Positions 7,698 to 43,189 of a DNA stretch of 64,000 nucleotides are shown in pieces. This DNA is from a virus: IMG/VR virus record IMGVR_UViG_3300047160_020099, positions 64,001 through 128,000 of that record; one strand, given 5' to 3'. A program made the translations under genes and the position numbers. Every line of letters begins with the position of its first letter. Positions within the stretch are counted from its first letter, which is position 1. The notes below the pieces were generated by a model. That model ran no database searches and was not told the DNA's origin. It was given only the letters and a program-made list of their open reading frames with translations.

Positions 7698-9104
7698 ATG
7701 CCTTTCGAGTACCCAACTGACCAGCGTGACAACCTGAATGTCTACGCGAGCCTGATAGCCAGCTTCTGGACCACGCTATTCGGCAACGTCGATAACGTGG
7801 TGGACCTGCTGCGCACCTACAAGCTGTCCGAGCGGCAGCTGGCCGGCCAGATGCAGGAGCTGCAAGACACCGTTGGTCGGCAGACTTGTCCCGTCCACCA
7901 CACTCAGGACTGGTACGAGCTTACGCTGCTCCTGTCTACTCGGCAGGCTGGACCCATACCCGGTAGTGTCAGTTACGTTTTGCCGGCAGTTTTACAGAAC
8001 TGCCTACAGGTCACCAACGCCATCACAACCCCTTCCGCAGCCTGGCACAATGGCGTCTCGATGACGATCGACCCGGTCAACCACCTCATCAACTTCGCCG
8101 CCGATCCATTCAACGACCCGAATGTAGTACCTGTACCTGTTCACGATTCCACAGGCACGGTCATCGATACAGCGCTGACGCTGTGGCTCTTCAAGGCGAA
8201 GCTCGACTGGCAGTATCTCTACGAGCAATTCGGTTACGTGGTTGGCGTCGGACAAGACATGGCAAGCACCTACGCCCTCAAGACCTTGCTCAACGCCGTC
8301 TATGACGCCTACACCGCGGGCAGTACCTACGACGCTGTAAGCCGGCTGTTAACAGCACTCACGGACATACCACTCGCGGTCGGCAACGAGACTGTACAGG
8401 CGATCACGCAAGACGCCACCAACTTGCTCGTTATAACCGACCAAACTGTGTATAAGTTCTCGCCAGACGCAACGGCAGTTGTACTGCCTGGGCAACAGCT
8501 CAACCGCAACGATCCGCTCACCGACGCCTTGCAGATCATCGAGCCGACAGCTGGGGTCATCCCGCCGATAATCTCGCAGCTCTCCCTCGGCCCTGGCTTC
8601 CTGCTCGTCGATATTTCGAACGAGCTGCTGTTCAAAAATGCCTCGGTCCCCCTGAACGTGCAGACGGGCGTGAGTGGCTACACAAAGCTGACCTGGCAGT
8701 TGGGCGGCTTTACCACCGACGTGACGACGTTCTTCAACGACCTGCATTCAAGAGGTGTGGCGGCTGGTGCCACGCTCGCCAATTACCTGGATACGCGGAC
8801 GGTACCCGTCGGACAACCAACCGCTGCTGATCTGCCTACCGGTATCAACCCTCTTCAGTTCCTGGTGCAGAACGTCCTTCGCAACAACTGTCTGTTCGTG
8901 TATCTGAAGGTAGACCAGTTTGGCCCCAAGGCACTTGGCACCGGTCTGGCCAGCTTGTTGCGACAGGTGGTGCCGCCACACATGACCGTGATCGTCTACG
9001 CCGAGGTCGTCCAGGCTACTGAGGCCGTTACAATGAACGGTGTTGGCAGTCTGACCAACCCTGGCTATGCTGAGAGCTATTCGCTCTATACCACACCCGG
9101 TTAA
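7698..9104 (+). CDS. putative baseplate/tail structural protein
   Basis: 468 aa, T/V/P-rich; C-terminal L.QVVPPH similar to baseplate wedge proteins; tail-module context. Confidence 0.6.
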   Translation: MPFEYPTDQRDNLNVYASLIASFWTTLFGNVDNVVDLLRTYKLSERQLAGQMQELQDTVGRQTCPVHHTQDWYELTLLLSTRQAGPIPGSVSYVLPAVLQNCLQVTNAITTPSAAWHNGVSMTIDPVNHLINFAADPFNDPNVVPVPVHDSTGTVIDTALTLWLFKAKLDWQYLYEQFGYVVGVGQDMASTYALKTLLNAVYDAYTAGSTYDAVSRLLTALTDIPLAVGNETVQAITQDATNLLVITDQTVYKFSPDATAVVLPGQQLNRNDPLTDALQIIEPTAGVIPPIISQLSLGPGFLLVDISNELLFKNASVPLNVQTGVSGYTKLTWQLGGFTTDVTTFFNDLHSRGVAAGATLANYLDTRTVPVGQPTAADLPTGINPLQFLVQNVLRNNCLFVYLKVDQFGPKALGTGLASLLRQVVPPHMTVIVYAEVVQATEAVTMNGVGSLTNPGYAESYSLYTTPG

Positions 9105-9114
9105 GGAGCCAAAT

Positions 9115-9249
9115 ATGCCTCATGTGCTCATTGCGGCTGTCTTGTTGCTGGTCGTGCTGGCAGTTGCAGGCTCGCGCGACAAGGAGTACGAGGGCAAGCC
9201 AGTCATCCTGCCGTTCAAGCGACCCGACAGGAAGGGTAATTCGGCATGA
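9115..9249 (+). CDS. small membrane protein
   Basis: AAGGAG RBS, one hydrophobic segment, overlaps next start. Confidence 0.5.
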   Translation: MPHVLIAAVLLLVVLAVAGSRDKEYEGKPVILPFKRPDRKGNSA

Positions 9250-9893
9250 CGCCTCTCAAGAAACGCTGGCGACGCCTGGAGAAGCGAGTACCAGGGCTGT
9301 ACGTCAATCCGGATATCTGTCATGGGCGGTATCAGATCTACCGGATTGACGAGGCTACCGGCCACTGGGACTTCTTGTTCTCCAAAGAGAACCTGGTCCT
9401 GTACACCTGGGGCTACCTTGCCTGCCAGTGCATTGGCCGTGGTAATCCAGCCTACGCTGTGGCAGCCGCTTACCTGGAGTACATGAACGTCGTTACAGCG
9501 GGCACCGTGGTAACGCCGCCTACCTACGACCGCTCGGCCGGCCTATCCTATTTCAGCGGCTTGCCAGTCAACAAGGATTATCTGCGTGTGCCGCTCGTTG
9601 GACTGCCAACGATTGACATTGCTCCTGGCTATGAGCCGTACTTCGTCTCTGGCTCAACCGGCAACCGTGCAACATTCGTTGCACAAAGCACCGGTACTGT
9701 GGGAGTGAACGGCCAACCTTACTCGGCGGCTGCGTTGTCCACAGTCTATGGTGTCACGCTTGTTGCTACACCAGTGCAGAACACACCTGCCGACGACATC
9801 ATCCTGAGTCGTGGGTATTTCAATACTAACGACCAGCAGTTGAAGCAGGACGGCAGCCAGATCGGCGTCCGCTGGAAGATCAGTTTCCAATGA
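9246..9893 (+). CDS. putative tail/baseplate fibre-attachment protein
   Basis: ENLV..G N-terminus and V.WKISF C-terminus typical of proteins preceding tail fibres. Confidence 0.55.
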
Positions 9894-9906
9894 GCAGGGA
9901 TGCGTT

Positions 9907-11319
9907 GTGACACGCTGGAATAGCTCAAATTGCCCGACGCCGGGGCCGGTCACCGACCATACTCCTACCACACCGTCGGCCATACCACCCTGTCCGGAGT
10001 CTTTTACCGGCACCAGTGTTGGCACAGCTGGGCCACGTGGTCAACGCGGTGCTCCTGGTACCGTTGGGCCGCGTGGACCAAGAGGAGTAGGTGGTCAGGT
10101 CGGCCCACAAGGCACTACAGGGGCAACAGGCGCAACAGGTCCACAAGGGCCTTCCGGCGGGCCACAAGGGCCACAAGGAGCAACTGGGCCACAGGGCCCG
10201 CAAGGGGCACGAGGTGCCACCGGTGCGACAGGCCCGCAAGGGCCACAAGGGGTCCCCGGACCACAGGGACCACAAGGTCCGCAGGGTGTTGCCGGGCCAC
10301 AAGGACCATACGGGCCACAAGGCGCTACTGGGCCTGTTGGTGGCTCGGGTAGGCCTGGCAGAGCTGGTCCAGCAGGGCCACGCGGACCGCGCGGACCACA
10401 CGGTCCTGGCGGACCACAAGGGCCACGAGGTGCCACAGGGCCACAAGGCCCGCAAGGTTTCCAGGGTCCCCAAGGTCCGCCCGGCACCTACACAGCTGGT
10501 AACGGCATCAGCATTGTGGGCAGCGTGATCTCAGTGGCTCCGACCATTCCGCAGGCCACCACTGTCAGCGTTGCTGATACAGGTACCAATACCACGCCCA
10601 CAGTCGCTACGCTGAACCACTCGACGTCCAACACGCCGGCCGATGGTCTTGGCTTACTTATGAAGGCCATGGTCGATACAAGTACAACAGCTAGTCAGGA
10701 AGTTGGTCAGCTGGAAATGTCGTGGGCAACCGTGGCTCATGCCTCACGTAAAGCCCAGGCAGTATGTCGGCTTCAAGATGCAGCTGGCGCCCGTGAGATC
10801 TGGCGAGGTAAAGCTGACGGAGCTAATCCAAACATCGGCTTCCTCGGAGCCACGCCATCAGCAGCGTTGGCTTCGCCCGATATGGGTACGCTCGCCACGA
10901 CGTTCGGTCTGGCGTCTGGCACGCCGACATTCAATGCCGTGAACCTTACTAATACGGCAAGCGCTGGAATACCAACTACCGGATCTGCGGCCTCGGGCAA
11001 CGTCAAATACAGCACAGGGACCATAACAGCCAACGGGATTGTGCAAGGCACTGCTACTCCCGTGACCCACGACAACGAAACGGTAACAATCCCGAACTCA
11101 AGTAACACGGCAGTCATCTTGCCGTCGGCTGCAGGTGGACAGCGTATTACCATCATCAACTCCAGTAACACCTTCAGCGTGGCGGTTTTTCCAGCCTCCG
11201 GTGAAACGATCGGTGGCGGGGTGGCCAACGCTGCGTTTACACTAGGGCTAAGCACCAAGATGATGTTCTGCGCTGTAAGCTCTACACACTGGACGGGACT
11301 AGGATTCGACATCAGTTGA
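9907..11319 (+). CDS. collagen-like tail fibre protein
   Basis: Long Gly-X-Y run (GPQ/GPR/GAT), then [11 protein letters not shown] and a beta-rich C-terminus. Confidence 0.8.
10021..10488 (+). repeat. Gly-X-Y collagen coding repeats
   Basis: Recurrent GGNCCACAA 9-nt units. Confidence 0.85.
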
Positions 11320-11334
11320 GAAAACGAGGAAGCC

Positions 11335-11796
11335 ATGCGAGGCGAATATACAGTATCGGTTGCACTTACCGGCGTGGGACCCCCGGCCACCATTCCAGCA
11401 ACGCTGCTTTTGCTCAAAACACCATCAGCTGCAATAGTTGAGGTGCTGGAAGCCTGGATCCAGTCCGAAGACGGTATTGCTCAGCAGATATCTGGGGCTC
11501 TATCCAGAGTTGCTAGTCCTGGCTCGCCAGCTGGCTCGACAGTTACGCCCGAGAAGATGGAGCCCGGCGATCAGGCTAGTGGTTGTACTGTGATCGTTAA
11601 TGTCGAACCTACTGGCAGCTATGACGGCGTTCCTGTTGACTGGCAAGGGGCACCAGCAACCTCTGGCTATCTGTTCAGTGAACCGGTTGGAATGGGCGCC
11701 TTCGCAGCTCCGAGCACCGGCATCGGGCTGAGGATCGAAGAGATCACAACTGCTGGCAATTTCATCGTCGGGCTGCGCTGGGTCGAACACGGATGA
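11335..11796 (+). CDS. hypothetical virion-associated protein
   Basis: GAGG RBS; beta-rich 153 aa after the fibre gene. Confidence 0.65.
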   Translation: MRGEYTVSVALTGVGPPATIPATLLLLKTPSAAIVEVLEAWIQSEDGIAQQISGALSRVASPGSPAGSTVTPEKMEPGDQASGCTVIVNVEPTGSYDGVPVDWQGAPATSGYLFSEPVGMGAFAAPSTGIGLRIEEITTAGNFIVGLRWVEHG

Positions 11797-11877
11797 GTAT
11801 TCCGATACTCGTCTTGTCGGTCGTCCGCCAGGCAGCTACACTGGCTGACGACTGGCATTCCTTCAACGGAGGTGAGC

Positions 11878-12306
11878 ATGAATGGTAAGGTTGAGGTGAA
11901 GATGGTTGGTGCCAACCAGCTTCCAGACTTCCTGCTGAAGCTGTTCAATCAGCTCGGCTGCAACCTCGGGCCGGAGGCTCAGGGCAATGGGGAAGACGCC
12001 GTGCCCGTTGAGCCAGATCCGTATGCCGGTCTGTGTAACTTCGTGGCCGACCAGATGTACTCCATCGACTGCGGCAAGCAGAAGTTCGATGAGAGGCTGA
12101 CAGCTCTGGCCGACAGTCTCGACAAGCATCCGCAGACACAGACCGAGGTTCATCGGCTTCGCGAGGCTGTGTCGCACAAGCTGGATGAGCTCCGCGATAC
12201 GATGCTGCTTCTCGACCCGGTGCTGAAGAACCTGGCCAACGAACAGAAGGCCCAGCAGACAGCCGCGGAGAAGGAAGCCTTCCTCCAGGAAGCCATCAGC
12301 AGCTGA
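11878..12306 (+). CDS. hypothetical coiled-coil protein
   Basis: GGAGGTG RBS; helical C-terminus. Confidence 0.65.
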   Translation: MNGKVEVKMVGANQLPDFLLKLFNQLGCNLGPEAQGNGEDAVPVEPDPYAGLCNFVADQMYSIDCGKQKFDERLTALADSLDKHPQTQTEVHRLREAVSHKLDELRDTMLLLDPVLKNLANEQKAQQTAAEKEAFLQEAISS

Positions 12307-12328
12307 ACAAGCTGGTACTTTGCTGACG

Positions 12329-12355
12329 AAGGCCGGGCAGAAGCCCGGCCTTTTT
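12329..12355 (+). terminator. intrinsic terminator
   Basis: AAGGCCGGGC-AGAA-GCCCGGCCTT plus T tract. Confidence 0.8.
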
Positions 12356-12358
12356 GTT

Positions 12359-12367
12359 TGGTAGAAT
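12359..12367 (+). promoter_or_regulatory. extended -10 promoter-like element TGGTAGAAT (second copy 5995-6003)
   Basis: TG-n-TAGAAT just upstream of the RBS of 12384; same 9-mer upstream of 6032. Confidence 0.45.
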
Positions 12368-12383
12368 CGGGCTGGAGGCACAC

Positions 12384-12818
12384 ATGGCGACACACAGCAT
12401 AACCGTCACACGCTCCATCCCGGTCCAAACCGTAACGTTCGCTCCACCAGGTACGCCTGGTGTAGTGCAGAACTACACACTGAGCTTTGCCCAGATCTAC
12501 ACGGCGAGCGACGGCGTCGGCATTGACGACAACATCTTCTTGATGAATCAGCGGCCTGTAGACCCCACCAATCTCGGCGGCCCGCAGACTGCCGATTACG
12601 TGGGCGTCTGCTCTCCATATGATCTGGCAACCTGGTCGGTAAACGCTCCGGCGCCCGGCCAGACTCTCTTCCGTGTCCTCCAGGTGAACCGTTCTTTCCA
12701 GAATCAGAACGACGCCGACGTTGAGTGGACAGTTGTCAAGGAAGACGTGCAGCTGTTAATCAACGTGCTCAAGGCGAACGACAACCTCAACAACGTCGAG
12801 GTCTTTACTGCTTCGTGA
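12384..12818 (+). CDS. hypothetical (probable virion) protein
   Basis: GGAGG RBS, 144 aa. Confidence 0.7.
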   Translation: MATHSITVTRSIPVQTVTFAPPGTPGVVQNYTLSFAQIYTASDGVGIDDNIFLMNQRPVDPTNLGGPQTADYVGVCSPYDLATWSVNAPAPGQTLFRVLQVNRSFQNQNDADVEWTVVKEDVQLLINVLKANDNLNNVEVFTAS

Positions 12819-12821
12819 GCC

Positions 12822-13082
12822 ATGCTCATCGACGATTCCACAATCAACGCACTGTTACAACGGCCAGAAATGGTCAGGGAGTTCCCTTTCCTGCTGGCCA
12901 CTACCGAGAATGCAAAGGTATGTTGCGGGCGTAGCCGTCGCGTTGCGAACTACCCAATCATCAAGCAGACGATTGCCGGCATGCCCACGGAGCGTAAGGA
13001 GCTCTTCAAGAAGATGCTGGGCGTGCTTTCTTGCCGAGTTGTCTTCCAGGTCAACAACTCCATCTCCGATATCACGATCTAA
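12822..13082 (+). CDS. hypothetical protein
   Basis: 86 aa, packed after previous gene. Confidence 0.65.
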   Translation: MLIDDSTINALLQRPEMVREFPFLLATTENAKVCCGRSRRVANYPIIKQTIAGMPTERKELFKKMLGVLSCRVVFQVNNSISDITI

Positions 13083-13111
13083 AATAGTCGTAAAAGTGCG
13101 ACATTATTGTA

Positions 13112-13780
13112 TGCAGGATCACTACTTCTCGGCCTTTTCGGCCGGGAAGGAATGGCCTGCGACAGGAATCAGCTGTTGGCTTTGGAGTACATCTTGAGCA
13201 CCATTGAGATGTCGGCGAAAGCCGGCCTCCGAGGCCTCCCCTCGCTGATTCTTGTGGCCCCGGCGTGCTAACACCACGCCGGGGTCCCAAACGGTGTGTT
13301 GTGCGCAAGCTGACCGGCCTAACATCACCTACAAAAGCCGGCCTACACGAGGGCCGGTTCGACGTGCGAAAGCACGGACTGTGGCCTGTCCCCTGAAAGA
13401 CACGGGGCAATGGTGATACAACACACCGAACAGGGGCGGGCGCACGCCCGCGTCGCCGCCCCTGCCACTGTCCCTGTGAGCGAACACAGGGGGACAGGCC
13501 GCCAGCGGTCGAGCGACCGGCCAATCGACCGCTGGCACCTTCTAACATCGCCCGGCTTTCTGTCCTTCGCTGGGCGGTGTTGCCAGCGGCCGGCCCCGGT
13601 CAAGTGTACGGCCGCTGGCATTTCAGCTGCCTCCTGCCGGGAGCCTGTCCGCCCCGGCCCACATCGAAATCCTTCACGCCGCTTTGTTAAGCGGGTGGAT
13701 GATTGTGCCGGCAGCCCCCTGCCCGGCCTACAATCCTCTTACCCACTTCTCAAGCTCGTGATAGGATTACCGATGTGGAT
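13112..13780 (+). ncRNA. large structured non-coding RNA, family not recognised
   Basis: More than a dozen helices with + strand G-U wobbles, GAAA tetraloops and nested long-range stems; no credible ORF. Confidence 0.7.
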
Positions 13781-13834
13781 TTCATCCATCTTTGTCTTGT
13801 AGGACGACCTTTGCTTTACATATTGGGGAACCCA

Positions 13835-14113
13835 ATGCTCCGTTTCATCGAAGATAAGTGCGTCCAGACACCACAGAACATGTTGGTGATTGTAGAGGCC
13901 GACACCCCGCCCGAATTGACCAACCGTCAGGCACGCGACGCTGTGCTGGTCTGGGCCAGGCGACAGGGCTTTCCGGCCCGAGGGATCAGTGGCATCCCAC
14001 AGACCTATCCTGTTGACGCGAAGGGTGAGACCAACCCCGAGGTCGTGATGGGCAAGGTGCCTACCGCTGCACATCGAGCTGACTATCAACTGAGCGCCGG
14101 GATTGTCGTGTGA
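13835..14113 (+). CDS. hypothetical protein
   Basis: GGGG RBS-like, overlaps next gene (GTGA). Confidence 0.6.
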   Translation: MLRFIEDKCVQTPQNMLVIVEADTPPELTNRQARDAVLVWARRQGFPARGISGIPQTYPVDAKGETNPEVVMGKVPTAAHRADYQLSAGIVV

Positions 14114-14640
14114 AGATACCTTTCACCATCCATGCCGTAAGCGAGGTAACACACACGCTTACGCCAGCAAAGCGGCACCGGCTGCTCCGGCTGCTGGGTA
14201 GAACGGAAGAACGGCTCGACGACGGCAATATCGAGCTCACACCAGCACAAGCCCTGGTACTGTGGACAGCAGACGCCTTGATGGTGCGGACGGCGTTGCC
14301 GCTGGACCAGCAAGACTTCCTCCTCGAAGAACTCCACCGGACCATAGCAGACATCGGCCGACGCATCTGGCTGACGCTGGAAAAGTTCGAAGAGAAGGAC
14401 GAGCGTGGTGACGTCATCACGGCTCACCTGATGCTCTGGGACTCCCGGTTCGTGTCCGTCAGTGGCAAGAGCGGCTACCTCGATCTGCAAAAAGCTGTCT
14501 GGTTGACGAAGCTGGACAGAGCGCCGCTGTGGACCCAGTCTTGTGACCTGACGACCCTCTTCATAAGCTACCGGGCACGGATGGCCAAGCTGCATCCCGG
14601 CAGGAGAGATACCGATGCCGAGCGAATACCAGCTGCTTGA
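14110..14640 (+). CDS. hypothetical protein
   Basis: 176 aa ORF in a coupled operon. Confidence 0.65.
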   Translation: MKIPFTIHAVSEVTHTLTPAKRHRLLRLLGRTEERLDDGNIELTPAQALVLWTADALMVRTALPLDQQDFLLEELHRTIADIGRRIWLTLEKFEEKDERGDVITAHLMLWDSRFVSVSGKSGYLDLQKAVWLTKLDRAPLWTQSCDLTTLFISYRARMAKLHPGRRDTDAERIPAA

Positions 14641-15346
14641 GAATCGTCTGGCGACCTTCTGGCGCGATCCTCAGATGTTTGGCTTCAACCTCCTGGTATT
14701 GTTCATGGACGTCTACGGAGCCGAAGGCCTCAACTGGATGCCTGAGACTATCGAGATGGAGATCCGCGACGACAGTGGCGTCGATCTGCCGGAAGCCAAC
14801 TTCGACAAGCTGCTGACAGCCATTTCTCTTCTTGTCACTGACAACTTCTTCGTGAGCCCGACAGACTTCACACGAGCGTGTGTGGTCCTGTCAGGCCATG
14901 TCGTGAACCCCGGTTCTCTGATCCTGCCCGACTGTGCCGATCTGGCCTGGGGCCTCACCGAAGGCATGATGATCAATCCACCTGACGAAGATAACGAGGC
15001 ACCCTTCTCGAAAGAGATTGTTGCTTACGTAGGTGCGTGTCTGAATGACGAAGGTATTCTGAACCCTCCTGATATCCTGCGTATCGGCCTCCGTGACAAA
15101 GATTTGGCTGACAACGCACGGTACAGCTTTTCCGACGACCCGGAGATGATGGCGGCGATTTCTGGCTTCGAAGAAGACAAGACGTCGTCCATCAACTCTC
15201 TGGTTCTCAACCGGCTCAAGGACCTGTTCGCGCAACTCCAGTTGTTGCCCCTCAAGAACGGTCAGGCCGTTGCTGTAGCACGGAAGATGATGGCCGGGCT
15301 GGCCCATCAACCCGCTAGCGGCTCACCGCTAAATTCACCCGTTTGA
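14615..15346 (+). CDS. hypothetical acidic protein
   Basis: AGGAG RBS, 243 aa. Confidence 0.7.
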   Translation: MPSEYQLLENRLATFWRDPQMFGFNLLVLFMDVYGAEGLNWMPETIEMEIRDDSGVDLPEANFDKLLTAISLLVTDNFFVSPTDFTRACVVLSGHVVNPGSLILPDCADLAWGLTEGMMINPPDEDNEAPFSKEIVAYVGACLNDEGILNPPDILRIGLRDKDLADNARYSFSDDPEMMAAISGFEEDKTSSINSLVLNRLKDLFAQLQLLPLKNGQAVAVARKMMAGLAHQPASGSPLNSPV

Positions 15347-15411
15347 GTATTGGAATACATGCAGTTGTCGGTACCACGGGGTGCCGGCGTATCGCTGCGC
15401 GCGGAGATCCG

Positions 15412-18099
15412 ATGAAGACATCGTTCGTTGATGACCTGGTTTACAAGTTCAAGTCCGGCTTCCCGGTTACTGCCGTCAATACGACAGAGACAGACCGCTG
15501 TATCCAGGAGATCAAGACTGCCGGCTGGTTGATGGGTGAAGGTTGCAAGGTCACACTCACGCCAGCTGACCGCAACCTGTTCAAGACCCTGTTCAACACG
15601 TATACGGAATACAGCTGCCCGCTGACACCTTCTGGCGAGTTGACTGCGGACATCAAGAAGCTGGTCGCTCTCATGCGACGGCTTTGCCACGAGAAGTCCG
15701 AGGCCGCGGCAGACGTTGACCGACTGCTCGATACGGTCGGCTACCCGGTCATTACCTGGAGCCATACCGGGGGCTTCGATAACGGCGCCGGCGACGTCGA
15801 GCTGGACCAGGCGCTGGTCATGGCGGCCCAACCGTATGACAGCAAGGCACGCGACAAGAACCCGCTGCCGCGCTTTTGCATCCTTGTGTACAAGAACGCG
15901 AACGAGTTTCTGGACCCGCCCGGCCCGGAGTGTGCCCGTTTCCGCTCAGCACTACACACCATCTTCTGCGGCAACCGGCTCGTTGACGGCAGCATCCGGC
16001 GGCTGGTTATCATGCTCCAGCCAGACTGGACGCCGCACACACAGATCGCTCACTGCGTCAACTTCGTGGAGTTCGAGCCACCGAACGAGGAGCAGCTCTC
16101 CCACGAAGTCACGTATGTCGAGGAGTCGTTGCAGTCTTCCAAGCGGGACGTGGTGAAGACCTGCCCGACCGAGCTGCGTAAGCCCATCATTACGGCACTG
16201 CGAGGTTTCACCCAGCACGAAGCCGTGAATGCGCTGGCCTACTGCATCGTCAAGCATCGTGGCTTCTGCCCAGACATGGTACCCACCTTGCACGGGCTGA
16301 AAGCCGAGACCTTGAAGCGGGACGAGGTCCTGGAGTACATCGACGCCGAGTACCTGGCCACCACGGATCAGATCGGCGGCTACGAGAACTACCTGGAATT
16401 CATCAGCGAGTGCCAGGAGTGCTACACGGACGAGGCGGCCAAGGCTGGACTAAAGAAGCCCAAGGGCGTGCTGCTCCTGGGCCTTCCTGGATGCGTAGCT
16501 GAAGACACGATGGTCTCTTACCGTCGGGGTAAACGAACCGGCAACAGAAGTTTGCCGATCAACGTCTTTTGCGACAAGGTGAATGGCACCGAACATCATC
16601 ATGCTGGCGTGAAATGGAAGCCAGGATTGGATACGTATTTGCAATCCTTCAACCCGGAGACTGGAAGGATCTTCTATAACCTAGTCAAAGGTGTTTACAA
16701 GAAGGGGCGTAAACATTGCATACGTATCATCACCGATAACGCTGGCTCAGTCACCCTGACCGATGACCATCCAATTATGACGGCTGAGATTATTTTCAAA
16801 GCCGCCGGTGAACTACGAGTTGGTGATAAGCTTCTGGTGCGTGGCAATATGCACCCCACTAAGTTGGCCAATAAGACGGCTCCAAAACATAAACGCCGGG
16901 TCACGGTTGAAACTCTTAAATATCACCCTCGCGGCTGGCCTCATCCGGTAAAAGAGCCAACGACCGGTAAGGTTTACACCTATCTGCGGCAGCACCGAGC
17001 CAGGCTGGTGCTAGAAGCACATATGAACGGATTGGCCTATGAAGAATTCATCCGAATTCTGCAGAAAGAGCCGACAACGGCTTCAGCATTGAAGTATCTC
17101 GAAGATGGTTTGGAGGTTCATCATCAGAACGAAGATCCAACCGACGACCGTCTGGAAAATCTGCTGGTACTGACAAAGCCGGCTCATACGAAGTTGCACT
17201 GTGATGAAAGTCGTTTCAACGTTGCGTATACAACTGAAGCGACTATTACCGGGATCGAAGCTGTCGGTTACCGCGAGACATATGACGTTTCCATGGAAGA
17301 TCCGTACGCCAACTTCGTGGTTAATGATGGGATCATAGCCCATAACACTGGGAAAAGTATGGTGGGCATGGCCACCGCCCGCATCATGAGCCTGCCGCTT
17401 GTGAAGTATGACTTCGGCAGTGTATTCGGTGGCATCGTCGGCCAGAGCGAAAGCACCCAGCGTCGCGTGTTGAAGCGGGTGACAGCTCTCGGCCCGTGCG
17501 TCCTGCTGATCGACGAGGCGGATAAGGCCTTTGCCGGGATGGACCAGACCATCGGTGATTCCGGCACCGGCCAGCGTGTCTTCGGGCGGCTCCTTACATG
17601 GATGGCCACCGAGAACACGGATGCGTTCATCGTGATGACCATGAACCGGCTGAAGGGTGTCCCCGTCGAGATGCTGCGTGCCGGCCGGCTCGACGCCACT
17701 TTCTACACCGAGTTCCCCAGTCCACCAGAGCGGCAAGAGATCCTGGCCATTCACATGAGGAAGAATGGCGTGGATCCCAACTGCTTCGACCGCAACGACT
17801 GGAAGACCCTGGTCAATATCACGGAAGACTTTGCCGGCGCCGAGTTGGAACAGCTCGTCATCAAGGCCGTACGCACTGCCTGGAAGGCAACCAAACTGGT
17901 GCAGCCGAAGATAGCCCACCTGGAGGCCGCGCGGGTCTCTGTGAACCCGGTCGCGCACCTTGACAGAGAGGGCATGCAGAAGATCCTCGAATTTTGCCAG
18001 GACAAGGCCACGCCTGTCAGCAAGAAGAAGCGTATCGCCAAGTCGCAGGTTGGTCGGCTGCGAAGCAGCATCCTGGTTGACAACCCGGAGAACAACTAA
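15412..18099 (+). CDS. Ycf46-like AAA+ ATPase containing an intein
   Basis: IGGYENY, KGVLLLGLPG[intein]TGKS Walker A, VLLIDEADK Walker B, LRAGRLD arginine finger. Confidence 0.9.
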   Translation: MKTSFVDDLVYKFKSGFPVTAVNTTETDRCIQEIKTAGWLMGEGCKVTLTPADRNLFKTLFNTYTEYSCPLTPSGELTADIKKLVALMRRLCHEKSEAAADVDRLLDTVGYPVITWSHTGGFDNGAGDVELDQALVMAAQPYDSKARDKNPLPRFCILVYKNANEFLDPPGPECARFRSALHTIFCGNRLVDGSIRRLVIMLQPDWTPHTQIAHCVNFVEFEPPNEEQLSHEVTYVEESLQSSKRDVVKTCPTELRKPIITALRGFTQHEAVNALAYCIVKHRGFCPDMVPTLHGLKAETLKRDEVLEYIDAEYLATTDQIGGYENYLEFISECQECYTDEAAKAGLKKPKGVLLLGLPGCVAEDTMVSYRRGKRTGNRSLPINVFCDKVNGTEHHHAGVKWKPGLDTYLQSFNPETGRIFYNLVKGVYKKGRKHCIRIITDNAGSVTLTDDHPIMTAEIIFKAAGELRVGDKLLVRGNMHPTKLANKTAPKHKRRVTVETLKYHPRGWPHPVKEPTTGKVYTYLRQHRARLVLEAHMNGLAYEEFIRILQKEPTTASALKYLEDGLEVHHQNEDPTDDRLENLLVLTKPAHTKLHCDESRFNVAYTTEATITGIEAVGYRETYDVSMEDPYANFVVNDGIIAHNTGKSMVGMATARIMSLPLVKYDFGSVFGGIVGQSESTQRRVLKRVTALGPCVLLIDEADKAFAGMDQTIGDSGTGQRVFGRLLTWMATENTDAFIVMTMNRLKGVPVEMLRAGRLDATFYTEFPSPPERQEILAIHMRKNGVDPNCFDRNDWKTLVNITEDFAGAELEQLVIKAVRTAWKATKLVQPKIAHLEAARVSVNPVAHLDREGMQKILEFCQDKATPVSKKKRIAKSQVGRLRSSILVDNPENN
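16492..17346 (+). mobile_element. intein (285 aa) with HNH homing endonuclease, inserted in Walker A
   Basis: Starts CVAEDT, block B TDDHPI, HNH EVHHQNEDPTDDRLENL..H..LH, ends IIAHN, +1 Thr. Confidence 0.92.
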
Positions 18100-18479
18100 T
18101 GAGCCTTCAGGGCTTTTTCGTCACCGCTCACAAGCAGCTGGCCGTAGCATTTGACAGGCTCGACGGGGCGCTCTCGCACCTCTTCCAGCCTGTCATTACA
18201 AGCGGGCCACTGTTTGAACTGGTCAGGGACACTCACGCGACTGATTGGGTGTGCCAGCATTACCTTGTCGAGGACATCACACCCGACACGGCGGGCAGTG
18301 ACACAATCTACACTGTTACCGTTGAACTGCAGTGCAAAGGAAAGCAAGACCCCAACAAACCGGATGTTGGCAGTCAGCTGATCGCTTTGGTTGAGATCCC
18401 AGTCACCAAGAATGGCCTATGCGAGCTGGAAGTCATTTCCTGCACCAAATACACAGGAGACGGAACAGAACTGGAATGA
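18099..18479 (+). CDS. hypothetical protein
   Basis: Coupled (TAATG) to the AAA gene. Confidence 0.6.
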   Translation: MSLQGFFVTAHKQLAVAFDRLDGALSHLFQPVITSGPLFELVRDTHATDWVCQHYLVEDITPDTAGSDTIYTVTVELQCKGKQDPNKPDVGSQLIALVEIPVTKNGLCELEVISCTKYTGDGTELE

Positions 18480-18982
18480 GACTGCCACTGACCCTGACGA
18501 ACGACGAAAGCCTGGCAGCGGATCGTGTATGCGGTCCCTGCCAGGCTTGTTGTCATACCGTTGCCATCGACGACGAGGCCCTTCAAAAGGCCGAAAGGGA
18601 GCGGTGCTCTAACCTCTGTGCCACTGGCTGCAGTATTTACCCTGACAGGCCCAAAACTTGCAGAGAGTATCGTTGTGCGTGGTTGTCAGGTGCTTTGCAA
18701 GGTGATGAACGGCGGCGGCCTGACCAGCTCGGTCTGATGTTCCACTGGTCCGTCAACCACTGGTTCGGGCTCTTATTGATGTGCTGGGAGGTTCGACCTT
18801 TTGCCAGCGAGGAACCGGCGGCTAGCTATCTCTTGAAGAACCTATCACAGAAGCATTTGATCTGTATGTTCCTCAATGATCGCGGCGACGAGCCAGGAAC
18901 CAGAAAGTTCATTGGTCCGCCGCGTCGCATGGCTCAAGTTGCCGAGTTCGCGGAGAAGCATAAGGGACAGAAACCGGTTTGA
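18476..18982 (+). CDS. YkgJ-like Cys-cluster (Zn/Fe-S) protein
   Basis: CGPCQACC..C..L..GCSIYPDRPKTCREY.C.W. Confidence 0.75.
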   Translation: MRLPLTLTNDESLAADRVCGPCQACCHTVAIDDEALQKAERERCSNLCATGCSIYPDRPKTCREYRCAWLSGALQGDERRRPDQLGLMFHWSVNHWFGLLLMCWEVRPFASEEPAASYLLKNLSQKHLICMFLNDRGDEPGTRKFIGPPRRMAQVAEFAEKHKGQKPV

Positions 18983-19006
18983 AGTAGTGGATTTTTCGAG
19001 GAGCTA

Positions 19007-20113
19007 ATGTCCAATCCAACTGACGAACTTCGGGATATCGCTTCGGTAACCCGAGAACTGAACAGGAACGTTCTCTTCACACATGTGTCTGTGCATCGCT
19101 GGCGCGGGCATAAGGAAGTGGAAGCGGCCACCATCAAGGTCGAGGGCGAGACAGCGACTGAAACACTGGTGACCAAACCGCGGTGGAAGCTGCTCGACGA
19201 CGAGTGGCAACGTAAGTTCTCCAGGGTGGAGACCCTGCTACGCAACATCGTTGCCAAGGCCTCGCCGGCTTTCCCAATCCCCGGCGTCTATGTCATCCCG
19301 CGGCTGCGAGCCCGGCAGTTGTTCGAAGCGGTAGACGAGGTTGCGAAGGAGCAGTTCTACCCGCTGGCGGAGGAGTTTGCCGCTACGTGGCCGTCTTACG
19401 TGGCCAACATCCGGCAAACAGCCACAGAGGCTCAGTGGGCGCAGATCAACAAAGCCTTGCCGACCACAGCCACTGAGCTGCGTAAGAAGTTCCGTGTCAC
19501 GAAGCACATCATCCCGCTGGCCGGCGGCGCCGGTCTCAGCGTGGTAACACTTCGTGACATCTTCACGGACCTTGAGGCAGACCTGTGCAGCAGGCTGCCG
19601 CTGTCCGAGCACAACAAGGAGATCATCACCGCCACATTGCAGACCGCCATGGGCAAACTGCTGCAACACACAGGTGGTGAGTTGACTGGGGGCGAAGCGG
19701 ACAGCTACGCCGTCGAGATCGAGCAGGCGACACGGCAGTTCATCCAGGACACTGCTTCTGTGATTGCTGGCAGCGTTACTCAGGAGCTAAAGGACGCCGT
19801 CGATAATCTGGCCGGCCGGCTGGAAGAACACGGTGTGGTCCGCGACAGCACCATCGAGCTCGTCAAGGCAGCCTTCGAGAAGTACAAGTCGTTCAGCTTC
19901 GCAGCCAACCCGGCCACGCTGGCTCGCATGCACCAGGTCGAGCACCAACTGCTGCACCTATCGCACAAAGAGCTCAACCAGGACAACCGGCACGGCGACG
20001 GCTCGATTGCGAAGGGACTGTCGGACGCACTGAAGGCCTTGCGAGCCCAGGCAGAACAGGACTTCGCGGGTTCGGCAGCGTTTGGCCGCCGGCTCCGCAC
20101 GATCGAGGTTTGA
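19007..20113 (+). CDS. DUF3150-like protein
   Basis: FPIPGVYVIP..F...W..Y pattern, helical C-terminus, context next to AAA ATPase. Confidence 0.55.
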   Translation: MSNPTDELRDIASVTRELNRNVLFTHVSVHRWRGHKEVEAATIKVEGETATETLVTKPRWKLLDDEWQRKFSRVETLLRNIVAKASPAFPIPGVYVIPRLRARQLFEAVDEVAKEQFYPLAEEFAATWPSYVANIRQTATEAQWAQINKALPTTATELRKKFRVTKHIIPLAGGAGLSVVTLRDIFTDLEADLCSRLPLSEHNKEIITATLQTAMGKLLQHTGGELTGGEADSYAVEIEQATRQFIQDTASVIAGSVTQELKDAVDNLAGRLEEHGVVRDSTIELVKAAFEKYKSFSFAANPATLARMHQVEHQLLHLSHKELNQDNRHGDGSIAKGLSDALKALRAQAEQDFAGSAAFGRRLRTIEV

Positions 20114-20126
20114 CAAAGAGGAGCCG

Positions 20127-20558
20127 ATGAATCGAGAGAGCCGTTACGATCCTTATTCCCTCTGGCTTGTCTTGCAGAGCCAACCAGACAAGACGCTGGT
20201 TCACAGCTTCGACCACGGAGACAAGGCCATGGAATTCGCCAAAACATATGACCCGCAGACCGGACCGTTCAAGCTGGCCCGGACTGCGCTAGAACAAGTA
20301 GCGCCGGTACTGGCCGCTGCCGCGCAGGTAGCGATCGGCATCATACGGTCCGAGAAGCACGCCTCGCGTAAGCTTCATGGTGCGGCCAACTTCCTCGAAA
20401 CGTCCCTGCGTTACGCAGCGATGGACCGTGACCTGCCGGAGCTTTACAAGGCGACACGGCGGCAGTTCATGTACGGGTCGCAGGTGCTGGCCGACAGGGT
20501 GCAGGCTGCTACTGATGCCCTGCGGCCCTATCTCGATCTGAAGCTGGTGATGCGGTGA
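20127..20558 (+). CDS. hypothetical protein
   Basis: GAGGAG RBS. Confidence 0.65.
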   Translation: MNRESRYDPYSLWLVLQSQPDKTLVHSFDHGDKAMEFAKTYDPQTGPFKLARTALEQVAPVLAAAAQVAIGIIRSEKHASRKLHGAANFLETSLRYAAMDRDLPELYKATRRQFMYGSQVLADRVQAATDALRPYLDLKLVMR

Positions 20559-20803
20559 GGAGTAGAGGACCTCGGCGTATAAATCTAGGGCATCTCAAGG
20601 AGGTTTACTACGCTGTATGGCTAGATACCTTGTCTTTCGAGCTTGAGCATATCGGTGAAGATCTTGCCTACTTGCTTGGCGCGATGCTCCAGGGCGAATG
20701 CTGTGCATGGCCCGAGCACAGGCCGCTTGTGAAACTTCTTCGGAAGCGGTTTCCGAAGACGCACATCGTGTGGGACTACATCAGCATAGACGAGGAGGCA
20801 TAA
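20555..20803 (+). CDS. hypothetical protein
   Basis: Coupled GTGA overlap. Confidence 0.55.
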   Translation: MRSRGPRRINLGHLKEVYYAVWLDTLSFELEHIGEDLAYLLGAMLQGECCAWPEHRPLVKLLRKRFPKTHIVWDYISIDEEA

Positions 20804-20805
20804 CC

Positions 20806-21249
20806 TTGTCCCATATTACCAAGATGGAAATCGAAGTCACCGATCTTGATTCGCTCAAGGAGGCTTGCGAAGAGATCGGCCTGGAATTCAGAGAAGGTCA
20901 GGAGACCTACAAGTGGTTCGGTGCTTCCGTTGGCGACACGCCCATACCGGAAGGCGTTGATGAATCGCAGCTGGGACACTGTGCGCACGCGCTGCGTGTC
21001 CGCGGCAAGCCCGGTGCCTATGAGATCGGCGTGGTACCCAACGCTACCAGGACGGGTTACCACCTCTTGTGGGACTTCTGGGCCGGCGGTTATGGCCTTC
21101 GCGACGCTATCGGCGACGAGGGCAGCAAGCTTCTCCAGAAGTACACCGAGAAGAAGGTGCTCAAGGAAACGCGGAAGGCCGGCTTCCGGCTGGCCAACAC
21201 CGAGAGGAATTTCGCTGATGGCTCTATCAAGCTCACGCTTCGTCGCTGA
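20806..21249 (+). CDS. DUF1257 (Ycf35-like) protein
   Basis: GAGGAGG RBS, TTG start; SHIT..I..TDLDSLKEAC..G..YEIGV..Y.L.WDFW..DGSIKL. Confidence 0.75.
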   Translation: MSHITKMEIEVTDLDSLKEACEEIGLEFREGQETYKWFGASVGDTPIPEGVDESQLGHCAHALRVRGKPGAYEIGVVPNATRTGYHLLWDFWAGGYGLRDAIGDEGSKLLQKYTEKKVLKETRKAGFRLANTERNFADGSIKLTLRR

Positions 21250-21271
21250 GCCTGAACGAGATCCATGGCGA

Positions 21272-21709
21272 ATGGCCATGCAGCTGGCTGTCATACGCGG
21301 GCAACTACCGGCCTTTAAGCCGGCAGATCTTGAACCCGGCGTCAAGTTCTTCGTGCTCATGCTTGAACAGGCCGGCTGTGAGACCATGTATAGCTGTGAA
21401 GGCCATCCAGGCGGCTTCTATATCGTGTTCCGCGCGCCGAACTACAGGCGAGCATTCGACATCGATCGCTGTGACTCGGTATTTACCACTGAGCTGGACC
21501 ACCGTGAGCTGGTTTTCAGGCTCTCGCTCATGGTAGCTGAACACGGGGATACTTCGTGGGATGATGACAAACGATGCCGACGGCTGAGCTATCTGGCGAA
21601 ACTATGGGAAAAGCAACTTGGCCGTCTCAAAGCTCTGGACGTACTGGAGGATAAATGCAGGAGATCACTATCACCATTGATCGCCTCGGCAAGCCAACCA
21701 TCGAGGTGA
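21272..21709 (+). CDS. hypothetical protein with T.YSCEGH motif
   Basis: LEPGVK.FV.ML..G.ETMYSCEGH motif seen in phage proteins (TYW3-like). Confidence 0.55.
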   Translation: MAMQLAVIRGQLPAFKPADLEPGVKFFVLMLEQAGCETMYSCEGHPGGFYIVFRAPNYRRAFDIDRCDSVFTTELDHRELVFRLSLMVAEHGDTSWDDDKRCRRLSYLAKLWEKQLGRLKALDVLEDKCRRSLSPLIASASQPSR

Positions 21710-21852
21710 AAGGTGTCAAGGGACGACAGTGCCTGAAGGTAACCGAAGGACTGGAACAGTCGCTCGGTGGTAAGGTTGTAAGCCGCGACGCAACTGCTGA
21801 CATGTTGCCTCTCGGTAGCACCACCACAACGACCGCCAAAGTCACGCACTGA
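21655..21852 (+). CDS. DUF2997 family protein
   Basis: GGAGG RBS; I.ITID..G...IEV.GVKG..C...T..LE..LG. Confidence 0.8.
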   Translation: MQEITITIDRLGKPTIEVKGVKGRQCLKVTEGLEQSLGGKVVSRDATADMLPLGSTTTTTAKVTH

Positions 21853-22115
21853 TGGACGTCACGCTGTTCATCGGCCGTGACGGCAGTTTGACATTCCTGT
21901 ACGACGACATCCTTATGCAAGCCCTTCGTGAGCTGGGTCCTGCCAGCACGCGAAGGGCTTCTAACGTTGAGCCCACTACAGACGGTAAACACTGGCTCGC
22001 CGACATGTCGCCCACAGCCGGCCGACCAGTAACTCTTGGTCCTTTCGAGACCCGCCAGGAAGCTCTGGATGCCGAGGCAAATTGGCTCCTGAACTTTCTG
22101 GTGGGCACCATATGA
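21852..22115 (+). CDS. hypothetical protein of the DUF2997/DUF1257 cluster
   Basis: RRASNVEP..W.ADMSP..LGPF.TR.EAL.AE.WL. Confidence 0.7.
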   Translation: MDVTLFIGRDGSLTFLYDDILMQALRELGPASTRRASNVEPTTDGKHWLADMSPTAGRPVTLGPFETRQEALDAEANWLLNFLVGTI

Positions 22116-22120
22116 CGGGT

Positions 22121-22134
22121 AGTATTCGAATACT
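22121..22134. promoter_or_regulatory. perfect copy of dispersed palindrome AGTATT-NN-AATACT (intergenic)
   Basis: AGTATTCGAATACT; 12 further copies listed in findings. Confidence 0.75.
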
Positions 22135-22152
22135 CCTACACAGGATGCAACA

Positions 22153-22503
22153 ATGCCACGCGCAAAGCGCACTACCGTTACTCATTCCGTCAGCAAGAGC
22201 TGCGACGGCGATGGCGATCCATTTGAGCTCGGAATGCCGAGTGAAGAGACGACTGTGGACCTGATCCGTTACCGGGTCATTGCCGAGCTCCACGTCGATC
22301 AGAAGATCGCTGAGCTGACCGCGATCCTGGCAATGGCCGTCGGCACGGGGCCGGCGGCTACAGCAACGCCCAAGACCAGTAAGTGGGCCTGGAACTACGC
22401 CACGTTTGCTGACGCACAGGCCGCTCAACGGCGACTCGCCGATCTGGCAGCGGCCAACAGCAACATCCGGGTCAAAAACCTGACCATTCAGGAGGTAGCG
22501 TGA
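22153..22503 (+). CDS. hypothetical protein
   Basis: AGGA RBS, coupled to next. Confidence 0.6.
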   Translation: MPRAKRTTVTHSVSKSCDGDGDPFELGMPSEETTVDLIRYRVIAELHVDQKIAELTAILAMAVGTGPAATATPKTSKWAWNYATFADAQAAQRRLADLAAANSNIRVKNLTIQEVA

Positions 22504-22862
22504 ACTGGCAAAAGTTGATCGACGAGTTCGAGCCCGTTACCCTGGAGCGTGGTGACCTCACTGTCACCTTCGAATACTGGGATGGCGGGCTCGACAGGAA
22601 CTACTTCAACCCAGCTGAGCCGAAGGACGACAAGCCGACGCTTCACCTTGCCGTCTACCGGGATACGCCGAACGGTTTCGAAATGGAAGCCGCATTTGCC
22701 ACACGGCTTTTGATCAGCGACAGCTTCGAGACGCTGGTCGCGCATCTCGGCGCCATCTTGCCACTGGTCACGCACCAGGCGGATTACCAGATCCTCCTGC
22801 GTAAGGCTCCGTTCGTGTTCGCGGACCGTTCACCAGGCGTTGTGAGCCCGGCCTATGCCTAA
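22500..22862 (+). CDS. hypothetical protein
   Basis: AGGAGGT RBS, GTG start. Confidence 0.65.
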   Translation: MNWQKLIDEFEPVTLERGDLTVTFEYWDGGLDRNYFNPAEPKDDKPTLHLAVYRDTPNGFEMEAAFATRLLISDSFETLVAHLGAILPLVTHQADYQILLRKAPFVFADRSPGVVSPAYA

Positions 22863-23073
22863 CCTCTATGAGATCACGGTCCGTTTCAGAGACGGAGAGC
22901 TATACGGCCGTACTAGTGTACAGGTCTCGGCAACTGACGAACATGACGCCAGGGAAAAAGCGCTCGATGAACTGGCTGAAACGCAGCCCTGGGATGAAGT
23001 GACGGATGTGTGGGTGACCAAGCTCAACGACCCGCCGCCATCGCCTGACGGCGAGCCTCCGCCAGCTGCCTGA
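22855..23073 (+). CDS. small acidic hypothetical protein
   Basis: Overlaps previous stop. Confidence 0.55.
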   Translation: MPNLYEITVRFRDGELYGRTSVQVSATDEHDAREKALDELAETQPWDEVTDVWVTKLNDPPPSPDGEPPPAA

Positions 23074-26957: not shown

Positions 26958-26958
26958 C

Positions 26959-27312
26959 ATGGCTGAGAAGAAGACGATCTTCTTCCTGGAGATCGTCAGC
27001 GAAGGGACGGTAATCAGCGGCACGGCACATACAACAGAGGAGCATGCCAAACACTGGTTGGCTGAATGGTGTCGAAGTCAGTGGCTAGAGCAAAACGAGC
27101 TCGATCCTGACGATTTCCTCAATCCGGCTGAGGTCGAACTGATAGAAGATGAGTGGGAAAAGCCGTTGTCCGATGATGACAACGAAGCCACGAGCACGTA
27201 CTTCGAACACTGGGATCCAGAGGAAAGCTTCGATCTCGACGAACTGCTTCTTGACCCGCCGCTTCCTGGTGAAGAGCCTGTTGAATCAGGGCATCCCGAA
27301 GAAGCCGTCTAG
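26959..27312 (+). CDS. very acidic hypothetical protein
   Basis: GAGGTG RBS; D/E-rich. Confidence 0.65.
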   Translation: MAEKKTIFFLEIVSEGTVISGTAHTTEEHAKHWLAEWCRSQWLEQNELDPDDFLNPAEVELIEDEWEKPLSDDDNEATSTYFEHWDPEESFDLDELLLDPPLPGEEPVESGHPEEAV

Positions 27313-42723: not shown

Positions 42724-42876
42724 TGTACGGTTGTACACCGGTATAACAAAGTAATACCGATCGCAACTGTAAGGTGGTCTTTGTCTTTCAGCCGGAACGA
42801 GTGCCCGGCATGCGGTCCGGTAAGGACTAAGCATGCCGGGCACGAAGTGCCGGATGCTCTTCTCCGTAAGGAGAAG

Positions 42877-43009
42877 TATGGGTTGAATGTCAACTTAGTG
42901 TACAGCCATGCTTCTTATATGGGTTGAATGTCGTCTTAATGTACCGACCATTTTTGGCTTTTCCGGACGACCTGCTTCATATATGGGTTGAAGGTCAACT
43001 TAATGTACC
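42877..43009. repeat. three ~27-bp direct repeats TATGGGTTGAA(T/G)GTC(AA/GT)CTTA(G/A)TGTAC, iteron-like
   Basis: Copies start at 42877, 42918 and 42982; internal GTTGA-N3-TCAAC dyad in copies 1 and 3. Confidence 0.85.
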
Positions 43010-43189
43010 ACCACGCGATGAAGGAGGATTCGTAAGTGTTAACCATAAGTCTTGATGATTCGGAAATCGACATCATTGTCCATGCCCTATGGGTCTTGCG
43101 AGAGATACGCCAAGGTCAGGACATAGACGAGATAGAGGCACTACGTATGAAGATGGCAGAACTACAGTCCGTACCAGAGGCTCAACCGA

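Follow-up and report, generated by a model that had tools for sequence, protein, structure and literature searches.

The DNA analysed here, referred to as the window, is a stretch of 64,000 nucleotides (nt) that corresponds to bases 64001-128000 of the 161,936-bp IMG/VR virus record IMGVR_UViG_3300047160_020099 (estimated completeness 78%, GC content 58%). At window positions 13083-13834, a gap of 752 nt separates two small conserved genes; the upstream gene of 86 amino acids (aa) ends the tail module and the downstream gene of 92 aa starts the AAA+ ATPase module, in agreement with the original prediction, made from the sequence by itself, of a large structured RNA between the tail and AAA modules. 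The 86-aa gene is 52% identical (tblastn) to its ortholog in the related phage locus L005, and a hidden Markov model built from the orthologs detects this gene in 118 related loci; the 92-aa protein is 68% identical (tblastn) to its L005 counterpart and has 64 relatives among 1.8 billion representatives, and its gene truly starts with the ATG at 13835, which follows a GGGGA ribosome-binding site. With moderate confidence, the region from 13113 to approximately 13780-13820 on the plus strand is interpreted as a non-coding, densely paired RNA of approximately 700 nt, which would be transcribed from a promoter characteristic of this phage family and would constitute the variable cargo of an "RNA slot" between the two genes (Table 1).

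The plus strand of the gap folds with a minimum free energy (MFE) of -384.9 kcal/mol, compared with -291 +/- 7.9 kcal/mol for dinucleotide shuffles (z -11.9, far beyond the shuffles), and the minus strand with -371.9 kcal/mol (z -7.2). When the plus strand of the entire genome was scanned in 150-nt sliding windows with GC-corrected energies, segments of the gap ranked 3rd and 11th of approximately 3,200 (top 0.3%), and positions 13050-13700 were over-folded throughout. The GC-rich gap contains potential open reading frames (ORFs) of as many as 158 aa; since none of them has a tblastn match in approximately 180 related loci in which both flanking genes do match, the gap is non-coding, and a hidden gene was rejected. 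The original view of a structured, non-coding and sense-strand-biased element is thus upheld, and folding and repeat analysis recovered every helix that had been listed for it. Two details of that view did not survive: mismatches had been described as mostly G-U on the plus strand, yet the MFE structure of either strand contains 19 G-U pairs, and strand assignment from G-U pairs was dropped because the counts are equal; a possible pseudoknot between ATCACC and GGTGAT is a nested or alternative helix, because this pair sits within the 11-bp closing stem of domain D4.

Table 1. Features of the gap and its flanking genes (window coordinates), and content of the same slot in related loci (coordinates of the respective locus).
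Feature	Position	Strand	Description
Conserved 86-aa gene	12822-13082	+	CC-G-R/K motif; stop codon overlaps the TAAA box of the promoter
Phage-family promoter (predicted)	13080-13112	+	TAAAAT (13080-13085), N11, TGCGACATTAT (13097-13107); predicted start near G13113
5' hairpin H1	13113-13160	+	GCAGG...CCTGC; in MFE structure; at predicted transcript start
Domain D2	13162-13255	+	12-bp closing stem 13162-13173/13244-13255; within it a 10-bp stem, a hairpin of 9 bp and a further hairpin capped by GAAA
D2 inner elements	13178-13187/13227-13236; 13213-13224	+	Stem; CGGC-GAAA-GCCG; MFE structure and repeat analysis
Hairpin H3	13256-13286	+	Perfect 12-bp stem, 7-nt loop CUAACAC; MFE structure and repeat analysis
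Domain D4	13292-13428	+	Perfect 11-bp closing stem 13292-13302/13418-13428 around a multi-way junction
GAAA hairpin within D4	13363-13376	+	CGTGC-GAAA-GCACG; sequence and fold
Hairpins H5 to H9	13431-13619	+	Five consecutive GC-rich hairpins; 9-13-bp, mostly perfect stems; MFE structure and repeats
C-rich linker	13620-13658	+	Contains a small hairpin, 13636-13658; MFE structure
3' rod D10	13659-13778	+	Long imperfect hairpin; closing pairs 13659-13666/13771-13778; homologous rods in relatives
T-rich tail motif GACCTTTGCTTTACATATTGG	13807-13827	+	Counterpart of the family terminator tail TTTTTAGCTAT; kept before the 92-aa gene in relatives
Conserved 92-aa gene	13835-14113	+	Opens the downstream module: 92 aa, 176 aa, 243 aa, then AAA+ ATPase
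Slot of L035, L047, L117			Almost no content; approximately 100 nt, two hairpins
Slot of L024 (IMGVR_UViG_3300048837_000984, complete 193.7-kb genome)	L024:2940-3730		Predicted ORF-free RNA of approximately 790 nt, z -16.3
Slot of L025, L029, L109	L025:3066-3509; L029:3470-3840; L109:3156-3540		Predicted promoter-to-terminator RNA of approximately 400 nt, z -9, own terminator
Slot of L040, L043, L051, L125	L040:3590-3883		Predicted folded RNA of approximately 220 nt, directly followed by tRNA-Met(CAT) in the same slot transcription unit
Slot of other loci			Small inserted ORFs

A promoter motif and a tail motif stand at the two ends of the gap. The promoter motif, first met in AT-poor islands of the genome, consists of TAAA, approximately 14 nt, and (T/G)G(C/T)G(T/G/A)CA(T/C)TAT; the gap has the form TAAA-N14-TGCGACATTAT, which ends approximately 6 nt ahead of G13113, the first base of H1. 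The consensus of the relatives behind the stop codon of the 86-aa gene is CTAAAT-N12-TGCGTCATAAT-N4-TG. A position weight matrix that was built from the relatives only finds eight sites in the genome, all on the plus strand, and scores the gap copy at 13080-13107 with 30.5 bits, the second-best value. Counted with a strict regular expression from -25 to +90 nt relative to the stop codon, the motif follows the 86-aa gene in 43 of the 82 distinct relatives, compared with 1% of random segments. At the other end of the gap, the T-rich tail motif has eight sites on the plus strand and one on the minus strand of the genome; most of them stand behind hairpins of -22 to -43 kcal/mol, but the 60 nt upstream of the gap copy fold at just -13.3 kcal/mol, with no strong hairpin before the motif. 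Promoter (CTAAAT-N12-TGCGTCATAAT) and terminator tail (TTTTTAGCTAT), with examples in this genome at window 13080-13107 and at genome positions 12417, 14186, 30087, 32232, 142695 and 149182, are kept across more than 100 metagenomic phage contigs that range from 38 to 69% GC; this points to a sigma factor or polymerase encoded by the phage, and not to that of the host, as the recognizing factor. A scan for intrinsic terminators gave three weak sites where 1.6 were expected, none of them at H3 or at H5-H9, and an array of such terminators was rejected. The strand preference recurs in relatives: the slot of L005 reaches z -9.3 in sense and -5.5 in antisense orientation (40 kcal/mol apart), and that of L024 reaches -16.3 and -7.9 (26 kcal/mol apart). 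The better fold of the sense strand in three independent lineages is indirect evidence, consistent with an RNA transcribed from the plus strand.

The related loci were collected by means of the 243-aa protein encoded two genes downstream of the 92-aa gene, which has 25 homologs of 40-62% identity; their alignment led to 80 IMG/VR loci and 80 metagenome loci, approximately 160 in all. These relatives come from fresh water, the sea and soil, and many of them are found on contigs of 190-235 kb, some with terminal repeats. The gene order is conserved, from the 86-aa gene through the gap, the 92-aa gene, a gene of approximately 160 aa, the 243-aa gene and further genes to the AAA+ ATPase; judged by this order, the slot is syntenic throughout the relatives. 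The distance between the 86-aa and 92-aa genes ranges from 44 nt to approximately 2.9 kb, the longer distances being those with inserted ORFs, and purely non-coding slot content ranges from approximately 50 to 860 nt. The frame around this content is fixed: the promoter, a hairpin at the transcript start, and an extended terminal hairpin with, behind it, a T-rich motif that resembles TTTTTAGCTAT and is normally preceded by strong hairpins in this family. Over-folding was seen in every distinct gap of 150-1000 nt that was scanned, the mean GC-corrected z-scores on the plus strand lying between -0.5 and -4.7. The slot RNA of L024, a distant relative, carries a 40-bp terminal rod and a terminator and has no Rfam match; the boxes GGTRTAACCCRC and GTTAAATGGG are common to the RNAs of L025 and L029, and the RNA of approximately 400 nt looks like a separate family of slot RNAs. 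Apart from tRNAs, no slot RNA of the relatives matched Rfam, either in gathering mode (15 relatives) or in E-value mode (5 relatives). Searches with three single flanking proteins found no close relatives, and a degenerate pattern of promoter plus H1 gave 0 matches in IMG/VR.

The nearest relatives are L005 (gap of 537 nt), L181 (312 nt), L006 (221 nt) and L014 (223 nt), and similarity to them is confined to the two ends of the predicted RNA. H1 is shared with L005; both hairpins begin as GCAGG...CCTG(C/T), and the L005 hairpin is shorter (GCAGGC...GCCTGT) and stands at the same place. The 3' rod is shared by the window and all four nearest relatives as an imperfect hairpin of 100-135 nt, with the motif (G)ATCC on the 5' arm and the motifs CTCTT(A/C)(A/C)CC... 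and G(G/A/T)TAG(G/A)AT on the 3' arm; the corresponding elements of the window rod, ATCC..., CTCTTACCCAC and GATAGGAT, are the only interior-independent motifs that are conserved outside this genome. Aligned with MAFFT, the five rods have 84% of their cells in standard pairs, and 18 of the 31 pairs have changed on both sides; none of 500 column shuffles attains as much, and pairing falls to 35-45% when the partners are slid by 1-3 columns. Conservation of the 3' rod is evident from this alignment, in which compensatory changes support the basal helix. With a covariance model of the rod, the window copy scores 74 bits, and a search of 0.73 Mb of related loci gave no members beyond the five sequences used for training; therefore, the rod is specific to this small subclade.

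The interior of approximately 500 nt (D2, H3, D4 and H5-H9) presents a different picture. Searches with blastn and nhmmer against all fetched loci found primary-sequence similarity to relatives at chance level only, no homolog of D2 was found in the relatives, the k-mers that the window has in common with L005, L181 and L024 are not collinear, and the gap has no blastn match in GenBank phages. Because these approximately 500 nt cannot be aligned to anything, the search for homologs and covariation was productive for the 3' rod in five sequences only. By sequence comparison, the interior is lineage-specific, with only H1 and the 3' rod common to the nearest relatives, and conservation of the originally envisaged multi-domain architecture is not supported. 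Parts of the interior are repeated within it: an arm of the form GCCAGCGG(T/C)CG is common to H7 and H9, and AAAGCCGGCCT is present twice. The gap contains three copies of CCGGCCTA, two of them in D4, where alternative pairings arise when the folded window is changed; the remaining 161 kb contain five copies on the plus strand and none on the minus strand. The 752-nt stretch as a whole matches only itself across the 162-kb genome.

The gap RNA falls outside the RNA families to which it was compared. Rfam gave no match at gathering score in the 64-kb window; at E-values of up to 10, positions 12900-14000 gave only microRNA and small-RNA matches at chance level, all with an E-value of at least 0.14 and scores well under the gathering cutoffs. 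GOLLD and ROOL, in whose size class of approximately 700 nt the RNA had correctly been placed, produced no covariance-model match in either of these searches or in the slot RNAs of the relatives. A tRNA or tmRNA was rejected on the basis of ARAGORN, which found none in the window, and of Rfam; a group I or group II intron or an RNase P RNA was rejected since Rfam gave no match and the flanking genes are separate, complete and conserved, and stand 44-56 nt apart in some relatives. This agrees with the original view, which saw no hallmarks of RNase P, tmRNA, tRNA or group II domain V. No aptamer or leader in Rfam matched, which disposes of a riboswitch or a known cis-regulatory leader. The template RNA of a diversity-generating retroelement was discarded in the absence of a second copy in the 162-kb genome and of a reverse transcriptase domain among eleven nearby ORFs (Pfam). 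The suggestion of a ribozyme or guide precursor is not supported: the analysis found no conserved core, no repeats or spacers, no complementarity of at least 5 nt between the predicted hairpin loops, and no sign of catalysis.

Among known systems, GOLLD and ROOL offer the closest parallels. They are large, ornate RNAs of phages and prophages, 0.6-0.8 kb in length, that adjoin or contain tRNAs; GOLLD env-38 follows a Met-tRNA, the GOLLD linker can hold tRNAs, and in GOLLD the 3' region is conserved and the 5' region variable (bioRxiv 10.1101/2024.12.08.627333). The gap RNA is likewise non-coding, phage-borne and within a common size range of 0.5-0.8 kb, and, as in GOLLD, its 3' rod is conserved and the rest variable, and relatives carry tRNA-Met in the same slot. 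In contrast to GOLLD and ROOL, the gap RNA has no conserved multi-helix core and no pseudoknots or kissing loops supported by covariation, and its interior is a string of near-perfect hairpins instead of an irregular, ornate fold. A further parallel is provided by phage T4, whose species 1 and 2 (RNA C and D) are stable RNAs of approximately 120-140 nt that share transcription units with tRNAs. By description, they can be likened to the combination of a folded RNA of approximately 220 nt and tRNA-Met in the slots of L040, L043, L051 and L125; however, the gap RNA is about five times larger than the T4 RNAs, and this phage has its own tRNAs 75 kb away, at genome 151.7-153.4 kb. Terminators and attenuators of the phage family itself are comparable as well, since rod and tail motif hold the place that a hairpin plus TTTTTAGCTAT holds in short-slot relatives; unlike them, the gap has nine upstream hairpins or domains without U-tracts and a degenerate tail motif. 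The most fitting class for the gap RNA is a known one, that of large, structured phage RNAs driven by a promoter, with the twist that a conserved frame surrounds fast-changing content.

Under the preferred interpretation, the conserved promoter would fire, as its motif suggests, and the transcript would open with a protective hairpin, continue into lineage-specific cargo, and finish at the terminal rod or undergo processing around it. Read-through into the 92-aa/AAA+ operon is probable for part of the transcription, because the tail motif at 13807-13827 lacks a strong preceding hairpin (-13.3 kcal/mol, compared with -22 to -43 kcal/mol elsewhere). The slot would supply the promoter, the 5' hairpin and the 3' rod or terminator, and the space between them could hold large RNAs, tRNA-Met or small ORFs, or be nearly empty; here, very stable hairpins and two multi-branch domains, which arose partly through internal duplication, would form the cargo. 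Several observations weigh against this interpretation. Without a strong terminator ahead of the 92-aa gene, the stretch could simply be a 5' untranslated region. Perfect Watson-Crick palindromes, which fold on either strand, make up most of the interior stems; the numbers of G-U pairs are equal, and the energy advantage of the sense strand is just 13 kcal/mol in this genome. Long-range pairs shift with the choice of the folded window, whereas local hairpins stay, and the hairpin loops of the MFE structure show no loop-loop complementarity of at least 5 nt, a result that depends on the predicted loops. The interior fold is a thermodynamic prediction for a sequence that has no alignable homolog; the rod alignment comprises five sequences, and long hairpins that are aligned end to end tend to look compensatory.

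The absence of a strong terminator between the RNA and the 92-aa gene also means that the gap RNA may be, at least in part, a long 5' leader of the downstream operon. A purely cis-acting role, as a leader or attenuator that tunes read-through, processing or translation of the 92-aa/AAA+ operon and has no function in trans, is nevertheless rather unlikely. It would account for the position of the Shine-Dalgarno sequence and start codon of the 92-aa gene inside a small hairpin (UUGGG-GAA-CCCAA), for the MFE structure of L005, where the GGAGGGG ribosome-binding site further downstream is paired to a CUCCUCC tract in the 5' part, and for the short-slot relatives, where the promoter is directly followed by a terminator ahead of the 92-aa gene in the classical layout of an attenuator. 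It accounts poorly for a length that ranges from approximately 50 to 860 nt with an interior that is not conserved, and for the tRNA or separately terminated RNAs at the same position in relatives; no riboswitch or leader family was matched, and 500 nt of near-perfect hairpins go far beyond the needs of any known attenuator. 

On the preferred interpretation, since four relatives have a tRNA in the slot and others have separately terminated RNAs, the slot would deliver stable, trans-acting RNAs and not a leader alone. By the same token, and by analogy with GOLLD and ROOL, one may guess that the gap RNA is a stable accessory RNA with a function in trans, either scaffolding or acting as a decoy for some factor of the host or the phage. 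A more far-reaching version is doubtful: the slot would be an RNA cargo site where each lineage evolves or acquires its own giant RNA (0.4-0.8 kb) or tRNA, and the 700-nt RNA would be a counter-defence decoy or self-assembling scaffold, a member of a new class of fast-evolving effectors. On this doubtful version, the turnover of the slot would be as rapid as that of anti-defence protein hot spots, in a globally distributed family.

Alternatively, the interior might be non-functional or weakly selected, with palindromic hairpins that were gathered by duplication or insertion in a permissive and non-essential slot of this large genome and are transcribed only by virtue of their position. The lineage-specific, unalignable interior, the many perfect palindromes that fold on both strands, the internally duplicated hairpin arms, and the tolerance of the slot for anything from approximately 50 nt to inserted ORFs would all be expected in this case. 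The possibility is still an improbable one: the gap hairpins occur nowhere else in the phage genome, independent lineages keep a large, very stable and sense-biased RNA (in L024, z -16.3 versus -7.9), and two GAAA tetraloops and the multi-branch domains are not expected from simple duplication of palindromes. The H7/H9 palindrome gives scattered single matches in 185,000 genomes, with no sign of a family of repetitive extragenic palindromes (REP) or miniature inverted-repeat transposable elements (MITE); these elements were rejected as candidates because the phage has no other copy and the matching genomes are unrelated and of high GC content.

It is very improbable that the gap is a DNA-level or replication element, in which RNA or palindromic DNA would start synthesis at an origin or a transcription-primed origin in the manner of ColE1 RNA II or a T4 R-loop: the cumulative GC skew has a wide minimum that includes the locus (genome 73-93 kb, window 9000-29000, minimum at 80.3 kb), although nearly all genes lie on the plus strand, the gap is the largest non-coding stretch in this valley, and a promoter with a structured untranslated RNA of approximately 0.5-0.7 kb resembles ColE1 RNA II, but the valley is 20 kb wide with a fitted breakpoint at 84.5 kb, two complete relatives disagree (G001 has no V-shaped skew, and the minimum of G003 is 30 kb from the slot), the GC-rich region lacks iterons as well as an AT-rich unwinding element, iteron-like repeats are found elsewhere (window 42877-43015), and the slot shrinks to approximately 50-180 nt in many relatives. 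ColE1 RNA II is a promoter-driven, untranslated preprimer RNA of approximately 0.55 kb with multiple stem-loops; in spite of the likeness in size, promoter and location within a GC-skew valley, the gap shows no evidence for an origin, for an antisense partner of the RNA I type, or for a G-rich/C-rich tract that would form a hybrid. The skew minimum as such could stem from the region of a replication origin or from a change in composition where the structural and replication modules meet.

Few RNAs are as poorly understood as large structured phage RNAs like GOLLD and ROOL, which cryo-electron microscopy has recently shown to build cages. To these, the locus adds an evolutionary pattern, in which a fixed expression frame is kept over approximately 160 metagenomic loci while the RNA content turns over and is sometimes a tRNA. 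If the cargo is functional, the slot would be a natural comparative system for what giant phage RNAs do and how they arise, and a ready-made site for the expression of RNAs from jumbo phages. If the cargo is non-functional, such extreme structure (z -12 to -16) without conservation would call for caution in RNA screens that are based on folding energy.

The gene content of the phage includes a baseplate J-like protein, a tail fibre with collagen repeats, a large terminase of the gpA type, a ribonucleotide reductase, an intein-bearing family A DNA polymerase and the AAA+ ATPase. The large terminase is at most 27% identical to any deposited sequence (Salmonella phage Arash, some Vibrio phages), and the 243-aa marker protein has no match in GenBank phages; the record represents an uncultured phage of approximately 200 kb that, by these comparisons, has no close cultured relative. 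The 92-aa protein has no Pfam or PHROG match, and its AlphaFold2 model (predicted local distance difference test score, pLDDT, of 95) has no fold match in the PDB at an E-value of 0.001 or better. The AAA+ ATPase (window 15343-18099) has 918 aa, with an HNH domain (aa 583-624) just ahead of the AAA domain (aa 668-789), compared with 540-656 aa in its shorter orthologs in relatives; the extra length fits an HNH-type intein or insertion. The ORF of the family A DNA polymerase (window 59365-63999) encodes uracil-DNA glycosylase (UDG) and 3'-5' exonuclease domains, with LAGLIDADG and intein-splicing domains inside it; this would be a second intein of the same phage.

Three further non-coding regions of the genome were recorded. 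Downstream of the ORF that ends at window position 42724, the non-coding stretch 42725-43015 has strong hairpins at 42725-42870 and then three direct repeats of approximately 30 nt, TATGGGTTGAAKGTCRWCTTARTGTAC, that begin near 42877, 42920 and 42983; these repeats have the look of iterons or operators, and an origin or the binding site of a regulator could lie here. Outside the window, at genome 151703-153401, four tRNA genes (Gln-TTG, Pro-TGG, Met-CAT and Trp-CCA) are interspersed with non-coding gaps of 420-570 nt. Finally, an over-folded non-coding stretch of approximately 240 nt at genome 149470-149700 (L004:1470-1700) lies downstream of a small ORF that resembles membrane proteins.

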